Shown: in pieces, positions 12 to 52,909 of the stretch
Position numbering within the stretch: position 1 is the first letter of the stretch
Layout of the letters: each line of letters begins with the position of its first letter
NCBI GenBank assembly: GCA_002688775.1
Contig: NZDH01000004.1
Coordinates: forward strand, 123,420 to 187,419
From: Candidatus Woesearchaeota archaeon
GTDB taxonomy: Archaea; Nanobdellota; Nanobdellia; Woesearchaeales; GW2011-AR4
DNA length: 64,000 nucleotides
Reading direction: 5' to 3'
Translations under genes and position numbers: made by a program
Notes under the pieces: generated by a model
Database searches by the model: none
Told to the model about the DNA's origin: nothing
What the model saw: the letters and a program-made list of their open reading frames with translations, nothing else

Positions 12-278
12 TTAATACCAGCTTCCACGCCAGGTTGAATGCCCGAACTGGATTAGCAAGTCAACACCCAGTCTTTCCACCTGCAAAGGCACATCGCAAG
101 CTCCAAAACAGGAGCCCATCCAAGTAATTACTTTTGCATCTGTTGCATGTTCTATTGCATGCTGTATCTCATTTGCTCTTGGCTTTAATCCGTCAGGAAG
201 CTGAACACAAACAAGTTTAGCATTATCTTTGTTTATTCTTTCAATTACTTTGTTTAGTTCAAGGTCATAGTTTGACAT
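12..278 (-). pseudogene. dph2: Dph2 (2-(3-amino-3-carboxypropyl)histidine synthase, diphthamide step 1), N-terminal 88 aa only, ending at an in-frame TAA
   Basis: N-terminus has the archaeal Dph2 layout (VQLPDGL...GACD...LIQFGHS). Full-length Dph2 is about 330 aa. The stop lies at 9-11, next to the window edge. Confidence 0.55.
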
Positions 279-319
279 GATAGAATAGAAAGTAATATGA
301 GTTTAAAAAATTATTGGGA

Positions 320-802
320 CTACCTTCCTTCAGCAGCATGGACAAGGTCTATCAAACGTGTCCCTTCTGAGTCAGGTGAAGCAATCTTTGGTACAGTTAC
401 AGTTTGACCTTTGCCTATATCAGAATCACCATCTGCAAGCCCATTTTGTGCAGCTATGTATCGTGTAATCAAATGTTCTGTTACAGGATCGCTTCCAGAA
501 GGACTGACAGTAATTTCCCCTGCAATTCTTCTAGGTGTAGTGTCATAATCAAATGTCCTTGGAATTCCATTATACTTTACAACGGATGTAGCCCCATATC
601 TTACAGATTTCCCTAAATCAACAACAGTATCCATTCCACTTCTTCCTAAATTCAAAACAGGCTCTCTGACTTGAGGCATAGCTGATGCTGCGATTAATGT
701 TGCTGCGGCAAGTCCCCATCCAAGTTTTCTACCTGTTATAATTTGCCCAGGTTCCCTAGAGTCAACGTTAATAAATTCTGGTTCTGGTCTTTGGTCGTTC
801 AT
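320..802 (-). CDS. Hypothetical membrane-anchored protein with a possible LysM-like C-terminus
   Basis: One hydrophobic segment (GWGLAAATLIAASAM). The C-terminal IAAQNGLADGDSDIGKGQTVTVP resembles the LysM tail pattern. Visibly GC-richer than its neighbours. Confidence 0.4.
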   Translation of the reverse strand: MNDQRPEPEFINVDSREPGQIITGRKLGWGLAAATLIAASAMPQVREPVLNLGRSGMDTVVDLGKSVRYGATSVVKYNGIPRTFDYDTTPRRIAGEITVSPSGSDPVTEHLITRYIAAQNGLADGDSDIGKGQTVTVPKIASPDSEGTRLIDLVHAAEGR

Positions 803-810
803 TTTATCCC

Positions 811-1026
811 CTACATAAACATCTCATCCAATTCAAAATCGGATAGATCTTTCTTATTAATAAGCTTAGCGAAATCTTCGTCTTTAAGTTTTTTTCTTGA
901 CTCTCTCATGTTTTCAATCTGTTCCATGTCTGCATCCAAGAATAATTCGTCTGAGTCCATTTTATTTGTAAGTGCCTGTGCTTTGGCATGAGCCGTATTC
1001 TGCATTACTTGAATAGTCTGGCTCAC
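811..1026 (-). CDS. Hypothetical small acidic protein
   Basis: ORF only, with a GTG start in the track. No recognisable motif. Confidence 0.25.
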   Translation of the reverse strand: MSQTIQVMQNTAHAKAQALTNKMDSDELFLDADMEQIENMRESRKKLKDEDFAKLINKKDLSDFELDEMFM

Positions 1027-1183
1027 CAGCTAATTCACTAACGGTTTTTCCTTCTGAAACTGCTTTACAGCCTAAACACATAGTAATACCCCACTTATTT
1101 GTTACTTAGTAGTGATAGAACTTATATTTAAAGTTTTCGCTTGATAGAGTAAAATGATTTATTTTCAATATAGAAATTAATTA

Positions 1184-1498
1184 TTATCTGACTGGATGCC
1201 TTATATAGTGCTTACAACTAAAGCAATAATAAATGATTTTGTGCCTGTGAATCCTGACCCTGCAATTAACACCTGGCACTAAGTACTGATAGCAATTCTT
1301 GCAGAATTTTTTCTTAAGTGAAGAAGGCAGCCTGATCTTGTACTTCATGGCAATTCTTCTTGCCAGCTTGACGTTTTTGTCAGAAAGTCTTTTATCTTTC
1401 TTGAATGATTCTTTAGCTTCGTTAAAGAGAAATCTAATGCGTTTTTTAGCTATCTGCTGCTGCTTTGCTGGTTTTTTATAGTATTTTTTGCGGGGCAT
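1184..1498 (-). CDS. rnp4: Ribonuclease P protein component 4 (Rpp21/Rnp4)
   Basis: Basic N-terminal helices followed by a zinc ribbon, CKNC...(18)...CFSC, typical of archaeal Rpp21. Size matches. Confidence 0.8.
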   Translation of the reverse strand: MPRKKYYKKPAKQQQIAKKRIRFLFNEAKESFKKDKRLSDKNVKLARRIAMKYKIRLPSSLKKKFCKNCYQYLVPGVNCRVRIHRHKIIYYCFSCKHYIRHPVR

Positions 1499-1567
1499 TG
1501 TTTAAATCAGATGATAAAACACATTAATTTGATTGATAAATATAAAATTATCCATAGAAATATTATT

Positions 1568-3532
1568 TTACAAGAATAATGGAACAAATACAAGCGAAAC
1601 AATGGACATTAATTTGATTAAAATATTTAATGATGGCCCTGAAGTGTCTTTACAAGGATCTCCAACTGTGTCTCCAACAACTGCTGCTTTGTGTGCATCG
1701 CTTCCTTTTCCCCCTAAATGACCCTCTTCAATGTATTTCTTTGCATTATCCCAAGCACCGCCTGAATTGCTCAAGAAAACTGCCATTAAAAATCCAGTTA
1801 CTGTAACTCCAGCCAATAAACCGCCAAGCGCCTCTGCTCCGAATAGATATCCGAATAATACCGGAGTTATTATTGCTATCAAACTTGGCAAAATCATTTC
1901 CTTTAATGCAGCGTGAGTGCTTATGGCTATGCATTTGTTGTAATCAGGCTTTGCTGTGCCTTTCATCAAACCTTTTATTTCTTTGAATTGCCTTCTGACT
2001 TCATTGATAATGTGGAAAGCTGCATTTCCAACAGATTTCATTGTTAAGCTGGAAAACAGGAATGGCATCAAAGCGCCGATAAATAAACCAACAATGACTA
2101 ATGGTTTTCCAATGTCAATTGAAGTTAATCCAGTAATTGTCATATAGCTTGCAAACAAAGCCAGTGCAGTCAAAGCAGCTGAGCCGATTGCAAATCCCTT
2201 TCCGATAGCAGCTGTTGTGTTTCCGACAGCATCCAATGCCTCTGCTCTTTTTCTAACTTCTTTGCCCATCCTACCCATTTCTGCAATTCCTGCTGCATTG
2301 TCAGCAACAGGGCCGTAAGTGTCGCTTGCTAATGTGATTCCCAAAGTGGAAAGCATTCCGACTCCGGCAATTGCAATTCCGAATAAACCTCCAAACTTAA
2401 AGGAGATTAAGATTGCAGCAGAAACAGCAATGACTGGAATTACTGTTGACATCATGCCGACTGACAGACCTTGGATAATGTTTGTTGCAGATCCTGTCTT
2501 AGAGGCTTCTGCTATTGAAATTGTGGGTTTTCTATGAGACGAAGTGAAGTATTCTGTTGATACGCCAATTATTATTCCTGCGATTAATCCAGCAACTGTT
2601 GCAAAGAAAATCCCAACGTCATTGACTAAGAATTTTACAATAAAAAATGAACCAATCAACATTATCACTGATGAAGCAAAGATTCCCTTGTTTAATGCAG
2701 TATGCAAATGCTTCTTTTTTGCAGCCTTTACAAAATATGTGCCTAAGATTGCTGAAACAATTCCGAAAGCTGCTAATGCCAAAGGCAATTTAATCCCCTG
2801 AACTGAGAAAGCAACTACACCAAGAACCATCGCAGCGATTATGTTGTCAACATAGCTTTCAAACAGATCAGCACCCATGCCTGCAACATCTCCGACATTA
2901 TCACCTACATTATCTGCGATTACAGCTGGATTTCTCGGATCATCTTCTGGGATGCCTTTTTCAACCTTGCCTACCAGATCAGCGCCTACATCAGCTGCTT
3001 TAGTGTAAATTCCGCCGCCAACTCTTGCAAACAATGCTATTGAGGAAGCGCCAAATCCAAATCCAAAGATTATGTTTGGATCATCAAAAATTAGATACAA
3101 AGCTGTTACACCCAGCAAACCAAGTCCAACAACACTTAAGCCCATTACAACTCCTGATGAAAATGCAATTTTTAGCCCTTTGCTGATGCTTTTCTTAGCT
3201 GCAACTGCCGTCCTTGAATTTGATTTTGTTGCAATTCTCATTCCAATATTTCCTGCCAAAGCAGATAAAATGCTCCCAGCAACAAATGAAACAGCAAGTT
3301 TTGGTCCAGTCTGAGGAATTGCAAACCATAGAACTAATGCGACAACAATGACAAAAATGACTAAAATTTTATATTCCTTGTGAAGAAATGTCATTGCTCC
3401 CTGATGTATAGCATCAGCTATTTCCTTAATTTTTTGATTGCCTGCATCCTGCTTTAGAATTCTAGAAGCTGTAAATGCTGCAAAAATTAATGCTAAGATG
3501 CTAATTATTATTACTGCTATCAACAACCCCAT
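1568..3532 (-). CDS. hppA: Membrane-bound ion-translocating pyrophosphatase, K+-dependent subfamily signature
   Basis: [28 protein letters not shown] and [18 protein letters not shown] motifs in a multi-TM protein of 654 aa. The Ala in GNTTAA marks the K+-dependent class. Confidence 0.95.
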
Positions 3533-9562: not shown

Positions 9563-11299
9563 TCAAATCTTTAACTCCTTTTCCATCTGGCTTGTTAATT
9601 CTCCAAGTAATTTCTCATAATCCTTTACAAATTTCACTTCGCTTAACCTGTCTTTTGCTTTTGTAGTTATTATCTGCTGCAACCTCATGCCGCCATCAAG
9701 GGCTGCATTTGCGAGTTTTGAAAAGTGAAGAATTGATTTCATCATTTGGTATGTTTTCTTTGGTTCACAAAATGTGTCTATCTCATGGAACGCATTCTGC
9801 TGCAGTAAAACTTCCCTGATCAATCTGGCTACAAGCAAAGTGATCTGCTGTTTCTCAGGCAATGCATCTGAACCGACCAATTGGACGATTTCAAGCAATT
9901 TTTCCTCTTCCTGCAGGATTGTCATCATCTGTTCAACAAAATCATGCCAATCAGGTGCAATATTTTTTGCGAACCAAGGGTCAAGTGTATTTAAGTATAG
10001 AGAATATGAAGTAAGCCAATTTATTGAAGGGAAATGTCTTCTCTGGGCAAGTTTTGCATCCAAAGCCCAAAATACTTTTGTAACTCTCAAAGTGCTTTGC
10101 GTTACGGGCTCTGAAAAATCCCCTCCTGGTGGAGAGACAGCTCCAATAACACTGACGCTGCCTTCCTGTTTTGTTCCTAATGGTATTACACGACCTGCCC
10201 TTTCATAAAATTGTGCTAATCTTGTTGAAAGATAAGCAGGATAACCTTCTTCGCCAGGCATTTCCTCCAATCTTGAGGAAATTTCCCTCATTGCTTCTGC
10301 CCATCTTGATGTTGAGTCTGCCATCAACGCAACAGAGTAACCCATATCCCTGTAATATTCTGCTATTGTAATTCCTGTGTAAATGCTTGCTTCTCGCGCT
10401 GCAACTGGCATGTTTGAGGTATTTGCAATGAGCACTGTCCTGTTCATCAAAGGCTTGCCGCTTCTTGGATCAGTAAGTTCCGGGAATTCTGAAAGAACTT
10501 CTGTCATCTCGTTTCCACGCTCGCCACAGCCAACATAAACAATAATCTGGGCATCAGACCATTTTGCAAGCTGCTGCTGTGAAACTGTTTTTCCAGCTCC
10601 AAACGGACCAGGGATTGCTGCAACTCCTCCTTTTGCCAGCGGAAATAGTGCATCAAAAATTCTCTGGCCTGTAATCAACGGCAATTCTGGTTTTAGTTTA
10701 GAACTGACAGGCCTTGGAATCCTGACAGGCCAATTTTGCTTTAATCTCAGCTCAAACCCATTATCGAGTTTTCCTATTGCATCATTAACTGTAAATTTTC
10801 CTGACTTGATTTCTGTAATTTTGCCTTGTTGGTCTGGAGGAACCAAAATTTTATGGATTATTCCGGGATTTTCCTCAACTTCACCGATAATCTGGCCCGG
10901 AGAAACTTTTTCTCCGTTCTTAACAATAGCTTTGAAGTCCCATTTTTTTGTATGATCGAGACCAGGCGCATCAACTCCTCTTTTGATAAAATCACCCATC
11001 TGTTTTATCAGAACAGGCAAAGGTCTTTGAATGCCATCATAAATACTACTAAGCATTCCTGGACCAAGCTCAACACTTAATGGCTGGCCGGTATTCACAA
11101 CCGGTTCACCAGGTTTTATACCAGAAGTGTCTTCGTAAACCTGAATAATTGTCTTTTCGCCTTCAATCTGGATTACTTCGCCCATCAAGTTTTCATTTCC
11201 TACTCTGCAAACATCATACATTCTAGGCTTTATTCCTTTGGCTACAACAACCGGGCCTGCAATTCTGTATAAAACGCCTTTATCCATTTTATTCTTCAA
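9563..11299 (-). CDS. atpA: A/V-type ATP synthase catalytic subunit A
   Basis: Walker [10 protein letters not shown] and [10 protein letters not shown] motifs. No intein-sized insertion. The track start is TTG, and an ATG (MDKGVLY) lies at 11287. Confidence 0.97.
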
Positions 11300-15777: not shown

Positions 15778-15883
15778 TTTGCTGAATTTGTTTTATATTG
15801 GTTATATATAAATATTACTGGTGTTGTCGATAAAAGTTGTTAATAAAAGTTTATAAATGTTATTAATTATCCCAACTATAAAT

Positions 15884-15984
15884 GCGCCGGTAGCTCAGCT
15901 TGGATAGAGCGTCTGAATTCATTGACGAACCTCCTATTCTTGGGTGAGAGCAGAAGGTCGGGAGTTCGAATCTCCCCCGGCGCG
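15884..15984 (+). tRNA. Class-I tRNA with a 26-nt intervening sequence in the anticodon arm; anticodon unresolved (only TCA or TGA possible)
   Basis: Acceptor GCGCCGG/CCGGCGC, D arm GCTC-AGCTTGGATA-GAGC, variable AGGTC, T arm GGGAG-TTCGAAT-CTCCC. TATA-like TTTATAAA lies about 30 nt upstream. Confidence 0.8.
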
Positions 15985-16035
15985 TTATTTATTTTTGCAA
16001 GCAAGATAGATAGAAAATAAAATAATTCAAAGAAA

Positions 16036-28993: not shown

Positions 28994-30199
28994 ATGAAAG
29001 TTTTACTTAATGATGGATTAAACAAAGAGGGAATCCAATTATTTGAAGAGGCTGGAATACAAACTGACACCAGAAAAAGAAATTTAAGTTCACTTGTTCA
29101 AGAAGTTGAGGAGTTTGATGCACTGATTGTAAGAAGTGCTACACAAGTTACACCAGAAGTTATAAGGGCTGGTGCAGAAGGGAAATTAAAAATTATTGGC
29201 AGATCTGGAGTCGGTTATGAAAATGTTGATTTAGAGGCTGCAATTGAATATGGGGTTGTTGTTAAGAATGCTCCTTCTGGGAATACTAATGCAACTGCAG
29301 AACTTGCATTAGGGTTGATGTATAGTCTTTCAAGGAATATTGCTAGAGCTGATGCGTTATCAAGAAGTGGTTTTTGGAAGAAAAAGGATTTGAAAGGTGC
29401 AGAATTATCACACAAAACTCTTGGCATTATAGGATGTGGGAGGATTGGTCAGAGATTGAGTGAATTGGTCAATGCGTACATGACCGTTATAGGTTATGAT
29501 CCGGATTTGGAAAGAGTAATGGCTAGATTTCCAGAATCAAGAATAACCTACAAATCTAAAGACGAAGTTCTTGCTGAAGCAGATTATGTTAGCATACATA
29601 CTGCTGGAAATGGTGTAGTTGTAGGTGAAAGAGAGATTGCCCTCATGAAACCAAGTGCATATCTTATCAATGTTGCAAGGGGGGAGTATGTGGATGAGCG
29701 AGCTCTTTATGAAGCATTAAAAAATGGCAGATTAGCTGGAGCGGGCATAGATGTATATTCAAGAGAGCCTGAGAAGGATGCTACGGATACTCCCAATTTC
29801 AACAGCCCATTTGGAGATCTTCCTAATGTAGTATTGACTCAACATCAAGGTGCATCTACAGACCGCGCACAGCAAAAAACATCGGAAGAAATAGCTAATG
29901 TTGTGATAGACTATCTCTTGAGGGGTGATTTTTCAAATGCTGTCAATGCAGGTGAAACTATCCAAGCTGAAAGAAGGCAGGTATATCCACTGTTCGTGCA
30001 TCACAGCGATGTTCCTGGAGCTTTTGCAACCATAGATGGGGTTTTAGCTGCTAATAAAATAAATATAAGAGAAAACCCATCAAGACAAATTGGAAGAAAC
30101 GGTGAAGTTGTTACTGTATATCTTTTGCATCAGCAAGTCGGTGAAGGTGCCCTCACTCAGCTTAGGGGGCTTGATATGGTACATAGTGCAAAGATGTGA
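28994..30199 (+). CDS. serA: D-3-phosphoglycerate dehydrogenase-like 2-hydroxyacid dehydrogenase with a C-terminal ACT domain
   Basis: NAD-binding GIIGCGRIGQRL, catalytic region NVARGEYVDE...LTQHQG, and an ACT-like tail (HSDVPGAFATIDGVLA). Confidence 0.8.
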   Translation: MKVLLNDGLNKEGIQLFEEAGIQTDTRKRNLSSLVQEVEEFDALIVRSATQVTPEVIRAGAEGKLKIIGRSGVGYENVDLEAAIEYGVVVKNAPSGNTNATAELALGLMYSLSRNIARADALSRSGFWKKKDLKGAELSHKTLGIIGCGRIGQRLSELVNAYMTVIGYDPDLERVMARFPESRITYKSKDEVLAEADYVSIHTAGNGVVVGEREIALMKPSAYLINVARGEYVDERALYEALKNGRLAGAGIDVYSREPEKDATDTPNFNSPFGDLPNVVLTQHQGASTDRAQQKTSEEIANVVIDYLLRGDFSNAVNAGETIQAERRQVYPLFVHHSDVPGAFATIDGVLAANKINIRENPSRQIGRNGEVVTVYLLHQQVGEGALTQLRGLDMVHSAKM

Positions 30200-40070: not shown

Positions 40071-41336
40071 ATGACCCAGATACAAGCGCACGTAGCAGAA
40101 TACAAAAAGAAAATTGTAGGTAATTTGGTTAATCTGATTAGCAAAAATCCTATTGTCGGTGTTGTGAATATGGAGAATTTGCCAGCGCCTCAGCTGCAGA
40201 AAATGAGGGCCCAGCTAAGAGGCAAATTTTACATTACAATGACCAAGAGAAGGCTGATCAAACTAGCTTTTGAGAAAAGCAAATCCAAGACTAAAGGAAT
40301 TGAAGAGCTAGAATCACATCTTGGTGGAATGCCTGCTTTGATATTCACGAAAGAAAATCCCTTCAAATTAAGCAAGACACTGCAGAAAAGCAAAAGTCCA
40401 GCGCCTGCAAAAGCAGGACAAACAGCACCAAGAGACATTGTTGTGAACAAAGGAGCAACTCCTTTTGCACCTGGACCAATCATTGGAGAATTGGCTGTTG
40501 CAGGCATAAAATCAGGAGTTGAGGGCGGAAAAGTAGCGATAAAAGAAGACACTGTTGTTGTAAAAGCCGGAGAAAAGATAAAGCCAAAAGTTGCTGAGAT
40601 CTTAACAAGATTAGGAGTAGAACCAATGGAAGTTGGCTTGGATTTAGTGGCTGTTCTTGAAAATGGCCTTATCTATAAGAGGGACATATTATCCATTGAT
40701 GAAAGTGAATATATAAACAGATTATCAAATGCATCAAGATGGGCGTTTAATCTTGCAAATTTCGTAAGCTATCCAACAAAAGAAACAATAAAATTACTAA
40801 TTGGAAAGGCTTTCAATGATGCAAAATCACTTGGAATTGCTCAGGAAATATTTGATAAAGTGATTATTGATTCACTATTGGGAAAAGCAGAGCAGCAAAT
40901 GCTTAGCCTGAAAGCAGAAGCAAACATCCAGGTTGTTGAGAAAAAGGTTGAAGAACCAACTAAGGAAAAAGTTGGATCAAAGCCAGAGGTAAAAAAAGAG
41001 GAAGCTAAACCTGAACCAAAAAAGGAAGTCGCAAAATCGGAAGAGAAAAAAGAAAAAATTGAGGCAAAGCCTGAAGTCAAAAAGGAAGAGTCCAAACCTA
41101 AGACCGAAGAAAAACAGAAAGAAGAGCCAAAACCAGAGAAAAAGATAGAAGAAGTAAAGCCTAAAACTCAAGATCCAAAGCAAAAAGCAGAATCAACTGA
41201 AATTAAGGCCCCTACAAGAGAGGAATTAGAAGCAAACATAAGGATGAGGGAAAAAGAAAAAGAGATTAAGGATGTTGAGAAAATAGCTCAGGATCTTCAA
41301 AGAAAAGCAATTAAAGATCAAGAAAAGAAAAAATAA
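40071..41336 (+). CDS. rpl10: 50S ribosomal stalk protein P0 (uL10) with a long Lys/Glu/Pro-rich C-terminal extension
   Basis: The N-terminal 280 aa are P0-like (ENLPAPQLQKMRAQLRG). The C-terminal 130 aa or so are KPEVKKEE-type repeats. No GLxxLF terminal motif. Confidence 0.9.
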   Translation: MTQIQAHVAEYKKKIVGNLVNLISKNPIVGVVNMENLPAPQLQKMRAQLRGKFYITMTKRRLIKLAFEKSKSKTKGIEELESHLGGMPALIFTKENPFKLSKTLQKSKSPAPAKAGQTAPRDIVVNKGATPFAPGPIIGELAVAGIKSGVEGGKVAIKEDTVVVKAGEKIKPKVAEILTRLGVEPMEVGLDLVAVLENGLIYKRDILSIDESEYINRLSNASRWAFNLANFVSYPTKETIKLLIGKAFNDAKSLGIAQEIFDKVIIDSLLGKAEQQMLSLKAEANIQVVEKKVEEPTKEKVGSKPEVKKEEAKPEPKKEVAKSEEKKEKIEAKPEVKKEESKPKTEEKQKEEPKPEKKIEEVKPKTQDPKQKAESTEIKAPTREELEANIRMREKEKEIKDVEKIAQDLQRKAIKDQEKKK

Positions 41337-41705: not shown

Positions 41706-42593
41706 ATGACATCACAGCAAAGCCAAAAGGAGCTAGTTGAGGAACTAAAGAAACATAAGTTAGAGGTATCTAAACTCAAGACTGCTTTAAATGACTTAGA
41801 TAAGGAAAAAGAAAAATGGTTCAGCAGAGGATCAGGATACTCTAAAAAAATAAAAGATGGAATAGCAGAAATAAGGGCGAGTAAATCAAAAAGGGATTCA
41901 TTCACAAAAGAAGTAAAGGATCTTAAGGAAAAGAGAGACAAGCTTAATAAGCTATCTTCCAGTATTTCTGATGATATAATTGATTTGAGAAAGGAGAAAA
42001 CTGGCTTAGCTAAATTTCTAAAAATAAAAGATTCGCCTTCTCAGATAAAGGACACTATTGAAAAGCTGGAATTTACAATAGAAACGCAGCCGATGGCTTT
42101 TGACAAAGAGCAGAGTTTAATGAAAAAGATCAAGGCAATGAAAAAATTGTTTAAATCAGCCGCCGTTTTACAAGAATCCAGTAAAAAAATAAGGGATTCC
42201 AGTCATGAGATGAAAGATAAGAAAAATGATGCCAATGAATTCCATCTTTTGATCCAGGTTAAGGCAAAAAGAAGCCAAGAAATGCATAAAAAAATTTTAA
42301 ATGTATCTGACGAGATTAAAAAGATTAAATTTGACGAACAGGAAGCTTTTAAGAAATTCTATGAATTCAAAAAGAAATTTAATGAAGTTAACAGCCAGTT
42401 GAAGGAAAGATTAAAGATTATGAATGGCGTTAGAGAAGAACTAGACAAAATATATGCTGCCATAAAGGAAAAGAAAAAGGCAGAGCAAGACGCCTTATTG
42501 AAATCCAAGGAAGAAGAAGTAAATCAAAAAATCAAGAAAAAGCAGAAATTGACTACTGAAGATTTGCTGGTTTTTCAGAAGGCAGGTAAATAA
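41706..42593 (+). CDS. Archaeal coiled-coil protein (COG1340-like)
   Basis: 295 aa, continuous coiled-coil composition. This location, downstream of the L12e gene, is common in archaea. Confidence 0.45.
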   Translation: MTSQQSQKELVEELKKHKLEVSKLKTALNDLDKEKEKWFSRGSGYSKKIKDGIAEIRASKSKRDSFTKEVKDLKEKRDKLNKLSSSISDDIIDLRKEKTGLAKFLKIKDSPSQIKDTIEKLEFTIETQPMAFDKEQSLMKKIKAMKKLFKSAAVLQESSKKIRDSSHEMKDKKNDANEFHLLIQVKAKRSQEMHKKILNVSDEIKKIKFDEQEAFKKFYEFKKKFNEVNSQLKERLKIMNGVREELDKIYAAIKEKKKAEQDALLKSKEEEVNQKIKKKQKLTTEDLLVFQKAGK

Positions 42594-42614
42594 TAATCAC
42601 TAAATTCTAAAGAA

Positions 42615-42803
42615 TTACTTAGATTGGGTATTAAAAGTGGTGTATCTGCAAGATCCACATGTTTCCCTATTACCATGCTTTGCCATGAAAGTTCCAGAGC
42701 CGCATTTTGGGCATGACTTGTTTTTTCTTTCAAGCTTATCGCCGGTTTTATTATACATATTCCATCTTCCTGATACTTTTTTCTTTTCTTGAGGTTTTGC
42801 CAT
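42615..42803 (-). CDS. rps27ae: 30S ribosomal protein S27ae (eS31)
   Basis: 62 aa zinc ribbon, CPKCGSG...CGSC, with a basic N-terminus. Confidence 0.9.
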   Translation of the reverse strand: MAKPQEKKKVSGRWNMYNKTGDKLERKNKSCPKCGSGTFMAKHGNRETCGSCRYTTFNTQSK

Positions 42804-42820
42804 TTTTATTTATTTTTTTT

Positions 42821-42986
42821 ATTTTAATGGTTTTTTATCTTTATTTAATGAGTTTTTCGTCAATGGAAATTAGCCACATATACATTAATTATTTCTTCAC
42901 AACCACATACACAATCGTTTGTGTACTCATTTCTTCAGTATTGTACTGGGCTCCAAATATCAAATAAAAACTATTTTTTAAAAATA
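42821..42986. repeat. Intergenic repeat family R1, copy C (between the rps24e stop and the rps27ae start)
   Basis: Same conserved blocks as copies A and B. It splits the normally adjacent rps24e-rps27ae pair. Confidence 0.75.
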
Positions 42987-46565: not shown

Positions 46566-46944
46566 GGCAAGGGTTAGTACTTAGCTTCGGCAATGTGATT
46601 GCTGAGGAAAGTCCGCCCACTACAACCGCAAAATCGGTTGACGCTTTGCGGGACATTCGCTATCGCGAAGTCCCGAGTAGCCACTCACGGAAGTGAGCTC
46701 TAGAAAATAGAGGGCAACCACTCAGAAACGAGACCGCCTTAAAGGAGCATGATGTGGAGAAGGATTTGGTGACAAATCTGAGATAACCCACTGACATTCT
46801 TTTAGGAATGGGTGAAACGGTGAGTCCTGGCTGGTGCAAGTCAATGGTCTAGTACCAGACGCTTAGTTTAATGCTAAGACAGGCTATCGCAATGCAAATA
46901 TTGCACTTAGGGCCTGACAAAAGGCGGCTTACTCTAACCCTGCC
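46566..46944 (+). ncRNA. rnpB: RNase P RNA (archaeal type A-like)
   Basis: P1 GGCAAGGGTTAG.../...CTAACCCTGCC, CR-I GAGGAAAGTCCGCCC and the CR-V-like ACAAAAGGCGGCTTAC. GC-rich island with a TATA-like box about 30 nt upstream. Confidence 0.9.
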
Positions 46945-50088: not shown

Positions 50089-50199
50089 GACCGCGGGCGA
50101 GAATCGAACTCGCGCCAAGCGGATTTCAAAGCAAGATGACAACCCTAAGTTGCAACCAGCTACCACAACCGCTTATTCTACCATTAAACTACCGCAGTC
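50089..50199 (-). tRNA. tRNA-His (anticodon GTG) with encoded G-1 and a 39-nt intron after position 37
   Basis: Sense strand: G-1, ACTGCGG/CCGCGGT acceptor, anticodon stem AGCGG/CCGCT, loop TTGTGG|intron, T arm GCGAG-TTCGATT-CTCGC, discriminator C. Confidence 0.85.
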
Positions 50200-52801: not shown

Positions 52802-52909
52802 GCGGGGGTGGCAGAGCCTGGCCAAATGCGCAAATTCATGATAAATGGAGTGGATGGTTGAGGGCCTTGTCCCTTAGTGGGTGCGAGGGTTCGAATCCCT
52901 TCCCCCGCA
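52802..52909 (+). tRNA. tRNA-Leu (anticodon GAG) with a 22-nt intron at non-canonical position 29/30
   Basis: Class II tRNA. Acceptor GCGGGGG/CCCCCGC, variable arm TCCCTTAGTGGGTGC. Removing 52834-52855 yields CAAGG-TTGAGGG-CCTTG. Confidence 0.85.

Follow-up and report, generated by a model that had tools for sequence, protein, structure and literature searches.

A probable tRNA-Arg(CCU) gene with an anticodon arm split by two tiny introns in a Woesearchaeota archaeon

The locus at positions 15884-15984 (+) of the window, the 64,000-nt stretch of Candidatus Woesearchaeota DNA analysed here, raises the question of which codon is read by the tRNA encoded there. The tRNA gene itself is real. It matched the Rfam model RF00005 over model positions 1-71 with 50 bits (gathering score, 29; E = 1e-7), and its anticodon loop region has 35 nt compared with the 9 expected by the model. 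The sequence reads GCGCCGG TA GCTC AGCTTGGATA GAGC G, followed by 43 nt and then by AGGTC GGGAG TTCGAAT CTCCC CCGGCGC G, a class I body with acceptor and T stems of 7 and 5 bp and a 5-nt variable loop (AGGTC). As an earlier note on this DNA had counted, G26 and the variable loop are separated by 43 nt, 26 nt more than in a mature arm. The note concluded that splicing could produce only the anticodon UCA or UGA. All single 26-nt excisions were enumerated, and the products with U33 indeed carried only TCA (loops ATTCAGA, ATTCATA, and ATTCATT) or TGA (loop ATTGAGA); the A31.G39 mismatch that the note had pointed out stayed in every one of them, leaving at most four of the five stem pairs. ARAGORN did not detect the gene without its intron mode, and with the intron mode it repeated the UCA reading, as 'tRNA-SeC (tca) i(39,26)'.

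The restriction to UCA or UGA holds if there is one intron, but it fails overall, because orthologs reject the single-intron assumption. From sequence comparison, the locus very probably encodes tRNA-Arg(CCU), not a suppressor, with an anticodon arm split by two tiny introns of 14 and 12 nt, which together make up the 26 nt counted earlier. Two introns had been one of the fallback options of the earlier note, and this option proved correct, the exon structure being set by relatives in which one or both introns are absent. The features of the locus are as follows; a slash in a bulge marks the predicted cut.

15850-15858 (+): TATA-box-like sequence TTTATAAAT, with its centre about 30 nt before the mature 5' end (sequence reading).
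15884-15984 (+): predicted tRNA-Arg(CCU) with three exons and two introns; 101-nt precursor, 75 nt when spliced (Rfam, fold, ARAGORN).
15884-15915 (+): exon 1, with acceptor strand GCGCCGG, D arm GCTC/GAGC with loop AGCTTGGATA, G26, and nt 27-30 TCTG (sequence reading).
15910-15913 (+): 5' strand of the central splice helix of intron 1, C25 G26 T27 C28, pairing with GACG at 15924-15927.
15914-15916 (+): 5' bulge of intron 1, TG/A.
15916-15929 (+): intron 1, 14 nt, AATTCATTGACGAA, at the non-canonical position 30/31 (relatives; relaxed bulge-helix-loop motif).
15924-15930 (+): 3' strand of the central helix of intron 1, GACG (15924-15927), then the 3' bulge A-A/C31 (15928-15930).
15930-15936 (+): exon 2, C31 and loop nt 32-37 CTCCTA, with the anticodon CCT at 15933-15935 (intronless orthologs).
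15937-15948 (+): intron 2, 12 nt, TTCTTGGGTGAG, at the canonical position 37/38 (ARAGORN once intron 1 is removed; relatives).
15931-15934 and 15943-15946 (+): helix of intron 2, C32-C35 with GGTG, containing a U33.U mismatch; 3' bulge AG/A38 at 15947-15949.
15949-15984 (+): exon 3, with A38, GCAGA, AGGTC, GGGAG TTCGAAT CTCCC, CCGGCGC, and the discriminator G73.
15985-15996 (+): T-rich tract TTATTTATTTTT directly 3' of the gene (sequence reading).

The D loop in exon 1 carries G18, G19, and A20, and CCA is not encoded at the 3' end of the gene. TTTATAAAT is a putative archaeal promoter element and TTATTTATTTTT a putative oligo-T terminator. A scan for sigma-70 promoters and terminators was discarded, the model being inapplicable to an archaeon.

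The layout of the arm is thus TCTG, AATTCATTGACGAA, C CTCCTA, TTCTTGGGTGAG, A GCAGA. Removal of both introns gives TCTGC-CTCCTAA-GCAGA, with a perfect 5-bp stem, U33, A37, and the anticodon CCT. The minimum free energy (MFE) fold of the spliced 75-mer is a cloverleaf of -32.6 kcal/mol in which all four stems (7, 4, 5, and 5 bp) are perfect, with a 7-nt anticodon loop carrying U33 and R37 and the 5-nt variable loop. ARAGORN called the spliced sequence tRNA-Arg(cct) with every stem paired, and with only intron 1 removed it reported 'tRNA-Arg(cct), intron ttcttgggtgag', 12 nt at the canonical site. When two excisions were allowed, the enumeration returned dozens of arms that had U33 and a 5-bp stem, among them Ser, Trp, Asn, Lys, and Gly forms as well as UCA again. 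Because this enumeration alone permits many products, the assignment rests on relatives.

In G012, of the same genus (L005/L051), TCTGCCTCCTA is uninterrupted, that is, intron 1 is absent, and the arm reads GAGCG TCTGC CTCCTA, a 66-nt intron, A GCAGA, with an anticodon stem identical to that of the window gene. G094, of the same order (L053), has a single 14-nt intron at 37/38 (ACTGC CTCCTA, TATGGTATGGTGAG, A GCAGT), which ends in GGTGAG, as intron 2 of the window gene does. Two genes of the same family, in G069 and G068 (L031 and L032), are intronless (ATTGC CTCCTAA GCAAT) and are 88% and 87% identical, respectively, to the spliced sequence of the window gene over 75 nt. Both introns are found in G004 of the same genus (ACTG, 21 nt, C CTCCTA, 11 nt, A GCAGT, plus a D-loop intron) and in G392 of the same order (GTAG, 15 nt, C CTCCTA, 14 nt, A GCTAA). 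The relatives thus set an exon structure different from that of a single excision and give the sense anticodon CCU, on which the tRNA inventory and the syntenic orthologs agree. An alternative pair of introns at 31/32 and 39/40 (TCTGA...TCAGA) was rejected; TCTGC is contiguous in G012, and G002 fits only 30/31.

The first 28 nt of the gene are identical to those of tRNA-Arg(CCT) genes of same-genus genomes, and exact copies of this 28-nt 5' half are present in 16 public contigs. Most of these are labelled Candidatus Woesearchaeota or Nanoarchaeota MAGs and six 'uncultured Methanosarcinales' (an automatic label). The acceptor GCGCCGG, the D arm with A20, and G73 match those of the same-genus Arg(CCT) genes and resemble those of the genome's own Arg(UCU) gene at C1:28252-28354. 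An order-wide search with the pattern AGAGCR N12-42 RAACCTYCTA gave matches barely commoner than its reversed control, and only those inside tRNA bodies were retained (G063, G262, G286, G392, and G060).

The gene lies in a conserved slot with the order GatE, 77-aa ORF, tRNA, 105-aa ORF, V-ATPase subunit I. When the neighbours were searched by tblastn, about 17 related genomes, with G012, G004, G069, and G060 among them, proved to have a tRNA-Arg(CCT) in the GatE / V-ATPase slot, and the occupants include many same-genus CCT genes with the identical acceptor stem GCGCCGG. These orthologs (L004, L005, L007-L012, L031, L035, and others) share with the window gene the position, the anticodon, the same or nearly the same acceptor stem, the D arm, and G73. 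On the other hand, they differ from it in introns, having none, one in the T arm, one at 37/38 of 12-66 nt, or the combination of D-loop, 30/31, and 37/38 introns; many of the same-genus CCU genes also have the anticodon stem AAAGG/CCTTT, unlike that of the window gene.

Intron content at this one orthologous CCU locus varies widely within the genus (L007-L012, L015, L018, L024, and L035). The syntenic CCU genes of G013 and G018 are intronless, several others have a 31-nt T-arm intron, and those of G027 and G029 have extra anticodon-arm introns; the anticodon stems of same-genus CCU genes are AAAGG/CCTTT, TCTGC/GCAGA, or ACTGC/GCAGT. Three introns are present in Arg(CCU) of G004 (L004, G004:C19), including the extra D-loop intron of 31 nt, and in Arg(UCU) of G010 (L006, G010:C3), whose third intron, at 42/43, has a textbook hBHBh' motif, AAGC [TG/A] GAAGC...GCTTC GCTT [AA/T].

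The orthologs also bear on the possibility that the gene encodes a suppressor-like tRNA with one 26-nt intron and the anticodon UCA, reading UGA, or UGA, a serine anticodon, with the A31.G39 mismatch retained. Such a tRNA is the sole outcome of a single excision, and it is what the intron mode of ARAGORN reports with its SeC (tca) call. However, the TCA at 15918-15920 lies inside intron 1 and is missing in the G012, G094, and G069 orthologs; the whole ATTCAT segment is absent from the syntenic orthologs, which read CCT. Besides having at best four of five stem pairs, the products of single excision commonly carry R32 or Y37, and no bulge-helix-bulge motif fits them: by hand, helix 32-35 (ATTC against GGTG) pairs at two of four positions. 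The class I body with 7/5 acceptor and T stems and without a long variable arm is not that of a tRNA-Sec. The statement of the earlier note that TGA is a stop codon here was borne out genome-wide, TGA ending 144 of the 504 ORFs of at least 250 aa (29%); within the window it ends a serA-like ORF (28994-30199) and the V-ATPase A ORF (9563-11299). In addition, the assembly contains no uninterrupted TCA anticodon arm beside a T arm, and the other 'SeC tca' call of ARAGORN, at C11:29722-29807 (CTTCGG, 13 nt, A), is an Arg(UCG). The suppressor reading, which the earlier note had offered among its explanations, is thus unsupported, and its probability appears negligible.

The inventory of arginine tRNAs fits Arg(CCU): the UCU paralog is present, and no other CCT tRNA and no other plausible CCT anticodon arm was found in the assembly, which is about 73% complete. 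The assembly comprises 1.04 Mb at 36% G+C. AGG occurs at 13.8 per 1000 codons, accounts for about a third of the arginine codons, and is second to AGA. The arginine tRNA family to which the window gene belongs has exactly two members in the assembly, the UCU gene on C1 and the window gene itself. The arginine identity elements in E. coli and yeast are A20 and C35, and both can be read in the window tRNA.

The UCU gene, at C1:28252-28354 (-) of the genome (G000), was called 'tRNA-Pyl (cta)' by ARAGORN in intron mode, but by hand it reads Arg(UCU), with the arm ATA, 28-nt intron, GC CTTCTAA GCTAT. It is a paralog of the window gene with the same D arm, a near-identical acceptor, and discriminator G, and its intron is at 29/30. 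The two-intron reading of 15884-15984 was first suggested by this paralog, whose intron lies inside the 5' strand of the anticodon stem. After several other calls had been read by hand, ARAGORN was judged unreliable for this genome. Its second 'tRNA-SeC (tca)', at C11:29722-29807 (-), has the arm CTAGG CTTCGG, TTATTTAGATGAA, A CCTGG, with a 13-nt intron at 37/38, and the 'Arg tcg' at C4:10184-10280 has the loop TTTTCGA of Glu(UUC).

Other tRNA genes of the genome are interrupted as well. The tRNA at 50089-50198 (-) of the window (Rfam, 49.2 bits) is a His(GUG) whose intron at 37/38 has about 39 nt, and a second, intronless His(GUG) is located at C11:360-430. The tRNA at 52802-52909 (+) (Rfam, 35.6 bits) has an insert in the 5' strand of its anticodon stem, and its ARAGORN call, Met(cat), is probably wrong. 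Of the four tRNAs in the window, only one is uninterrupted. At 46571-46940 (+) the window also encodes an archaeal RNase P RNA (RF00373, 99.4 bits) with two large insertions relative to the model. Identical tRNA-like fragments with their flanks occur on different contigs (C2:35187-35250 and C18:3689-3752; C8:74158-74246 and C9:44827-44915) and are probably assembly repeats or contig-end overlaps; one of them resembles the 5' portion of a Leu(UAA) tRNA and either lacks a T arm or has an interrupted one.

In the standard bulge-helix-bulge (BHB) motif, a 4-bp central helix has a 3-nt bulge on each strand, and the cut is made after the second bulge nucleotide. At intron 1, CGUC (nt 25-28) and GACG (intron nt -6 to -3) form a perfect 4-bp helix with the 3' bulge AA/C31 and an outer helix of G22-A23-G24 with C32-U33-C34. 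[quoted passage not shown] The helix of nt 25-28 was compared among the 12 genes that have a 30/31 intron: 47 of 48 cells are paired, and all 12 genes have the 3' bulge AA/C. Pair 27 is U-A, A-U, G-C, or C-G, and pair 26 is G-C, G-U, or A-U, demonstrating covariation. In longer 30/31 introns the interior adds an inner helix and the motif becomes a full hBHBh', whereas the interior in the window gene has only 7 nt. Both the unconstrained MFE fold and the centroid fold of the precursor contain the intron 1 hairpin and the AAC bulge.

The motif of intron 2 is formed by C32-C35 with GGUG, in which three of the four positions are paired (U33.U being the exception), and has the 3' bulge AG/A38. Its 5' bulge, U36-A37/U, is part of a 5-nt loop, and an inner helix is again missing; this motif, too, is relaxed and short of a strict BHB. 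In the table of 11 genes compiled for intron 2, the helix usually has three of four pairs; of the 10 genes that were parsed correctly (the G004 row being left out), 9 retain both C32-G and C35-G. The intron 2 of G004, parsed by hand, is TCTTATGAGCA, with the helix CTCC/TGAG. Pair 34, which changes from C-G to U-A in G002 and G035, is the only covarying pair, a weaker pattern than that of intron 1. The genome's own Arg(UCG) at C11:29722-29807 has a CUUC/GAUG helix with the same U33.U mismatch.

The exact site of intron 2 allows one variant of the same Arg(CCU), in which the cut is made at 38/39 (intron TCTTGGGTGAGA) and the loop becomes CUCCUAU, with U38 in place of A38. The sequence alone permits both CUCCUAA (37/38) and CUCCUAU (38/39), and most of the intron-containing genes conserve CTCCTAT with C or T as the next letter. 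However, intronless relatives have A38 (CTCCTAA and CTTCTAA), and G012 has no T after A37. Furthermore, the 2+1 bulge with helix 32-35 fits 37/38, whereas the helix for 38/39 pairs poorly by hand (TCCT against GTGA); ARAGORN also sets the intron at 37/38. A cut at 38/39 is consequently improbable.

The relaxed motifs, with no inner helices and with the U.U mismatch, would also suit a decaying or unprocessed copy, as the earlier note had proposed; AGG would then fall to tRNA-Arg(UCU) or to a CCU gene located in the 27% that is unassembled, the assembly being 72.8% complete. Nevertheless, the gene occupies the conserved CCU slot, its four stems are perfect after splicing, the universal tRNA residues are intact, and a TATA-like box and an oligo-T tract flank it. 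The intron 1 helix is perfect here, compensatory changes keep the motif across the 12 genes, and the same relaxed motifs are found in the sole Arg genes of relatives. The window gene is also the only CCU gene found in the assembly. Decay is therefore unsupported and very improbable.

For the tRNA-Arg(CCU) with two introns, the following processing is proposed. The TATA-like box at 15850-15858 probably drives transcription of the precursor, which the splicing endonuclease EndA would cut at the two relaxed BHB motifs; RtcB would then join the exons. Removal of intron 1 would require refolding, in which C25-G26-U27-C28 pair with the intron GACG, two intron A's and C31 form the 3' bulge, U29-G30 and the first intron A form the 5' bulge leading into the 7-nt loop, and the outer helix of G22-A23-G24 with C32-U33-C34 unwinds the D stem. 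For intron 2, C32-C35 would pair with GGUG (including U33.U), A-G and A38 would form the 3' bulge, and the anticodon stem would serve as the outer helix. Splicing must be stepwise because both motifs use C32-C34 and cannot form together. Intron 1 is probably removed first because its loss completes the 5-bp anticodon stem flanking intron 2. We infer both the cleavage itself and this order from the sequence. The predicted product is a 75-nt class I tRNA with the arm UCUGC-CUCCUAA-GCAGA, reading AGG.

Both enzymes are encoded in the genome. The assembly contains one EndA copy of 190 aa with N and C domains (PF01974, 96.5 bits; PF02778, 60.4 bits), and a tblastn search of this assembly (about 73% complete) revealed no second EndA subunit. 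The RtcB ligase was identified with PF01139 (484 bits). Its match, at C18:40122-42944 (+), is split into profile positions 1-56 (40122-40298) and 45-426 (41760-42944), both in one 992-aa frame, with an in-frame insert of about 1.46 kb between them that is intein-sized. The EndA gene, at C6:59939-60508 of the genome, divergently adjoins a 311-aa ORF with a metallo-beta-lactamase fold; in L076, a stretch of C6, the EndA gene is at 1216-1788 (+) and the ORF at 204-1139 (-). This ORF looks like RNase Z, and if it is, two tRNA-processing enzymes share one intergenic region.

The intron pair is not confined to the CCU slot. It is present in the UCU genes of G002, G035, G010, G003, and G063, at another locus, and in the CCU slot genes of the window, G004, and G392, and its ends are alike in CCU and UCU genes (AA...GNCGAA/C and T...G/A). 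The UCU genes with the same pair in G002 and G035 (L002 and L003) lie outside the GatE / V-ATPase slot. Most same-genus CCU slot orthologs have a different anticodon stem and lack the 30/31 and 37/38 pair. It is conceivable, though doubtful, that the pair is inherited as a unit and was transferred from one arginine isoacceptor gene to another, perhaps by gene conversion of the complete anticodon arm, with its introns, from the UCU paralog into the CCU gene; ancient shared ancestry of the pair followed by repeated loss is the alternative. If conversion of the anticodon arm did occur, recombination between isoacceptors would be a route of tRNA intron spread in DPANN archaea.

These observations have consequences for annotation. 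ARAGORN by default misses the gene, and in intron mode labels it as a selenocysteine or suppressor tRNA; the 'Pyl', 'SeC', and 'Arg tcg' calls in this genome are really Arg-UCU, Arg-UCG, and Glu-UUC, and taken at face value they would imply stop-codon recoding in a DPANN archaeon that has none. The locus is also a clear case of how fast tRNA introns turn over at a single orthologous position in one genus, and its two mutually exclusive minimal splice motifs provide a natural pair for probing the substrate range of the DPANN alpha-type EndA.

The only resemblance of the window gene to tRNA-Sec and UGA suppressors is a TCA preceded by a U, in the 5' part of intron 1. A tRNA-Sec has a long variable arm and 9/4 or 8/5 acceptor and T stems, whereas the window gene has neither, and in contrast to the situation of a UGA suppressor, UGA is a normal stop in this genome. 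Archaeal tRNA genes with multiple, non-canonical introns were reportedly described by Marck and Grosjean in 2003 and by Sugahara and coworkers in 2007/2008. The known non-canonical intron positions include 30/31, and introns of this type are often found alongside a canonical one (Yoshihisa 2014, PMC4090602). A survey of DPANN genomes that included a Woesearchaeota genome found heavily disrupted tRNA genes together with an alpha4-type EndA with the L3 loop (Kaneta et al. 2018, PMC5829648). In PMC4090602 and PMC5829648 we found no description of this gene or of the 30/31 intron family of the Woesearchaeales CCU and UCU arginine tRNAs. Like the window gene, the multi-intron tRNAs of Thermoproteales, Nanoarchaeota, and ARMAN/DPANN archaea combine a canonical 37/38 intron with a non-canonical one, and their introns are short, have relaxed BHB motifs (HBh' or BHL), and are missed or mislabelled by standard predictors. 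Multi-intron tRNAs with relaxed motifs are thus already documented in DPANN archaea, and the window gene is another such case. It does not differ from them in kind; what marks it is that nt 32-34 belong to both of its motifs, so that splicing has to be stepwise.
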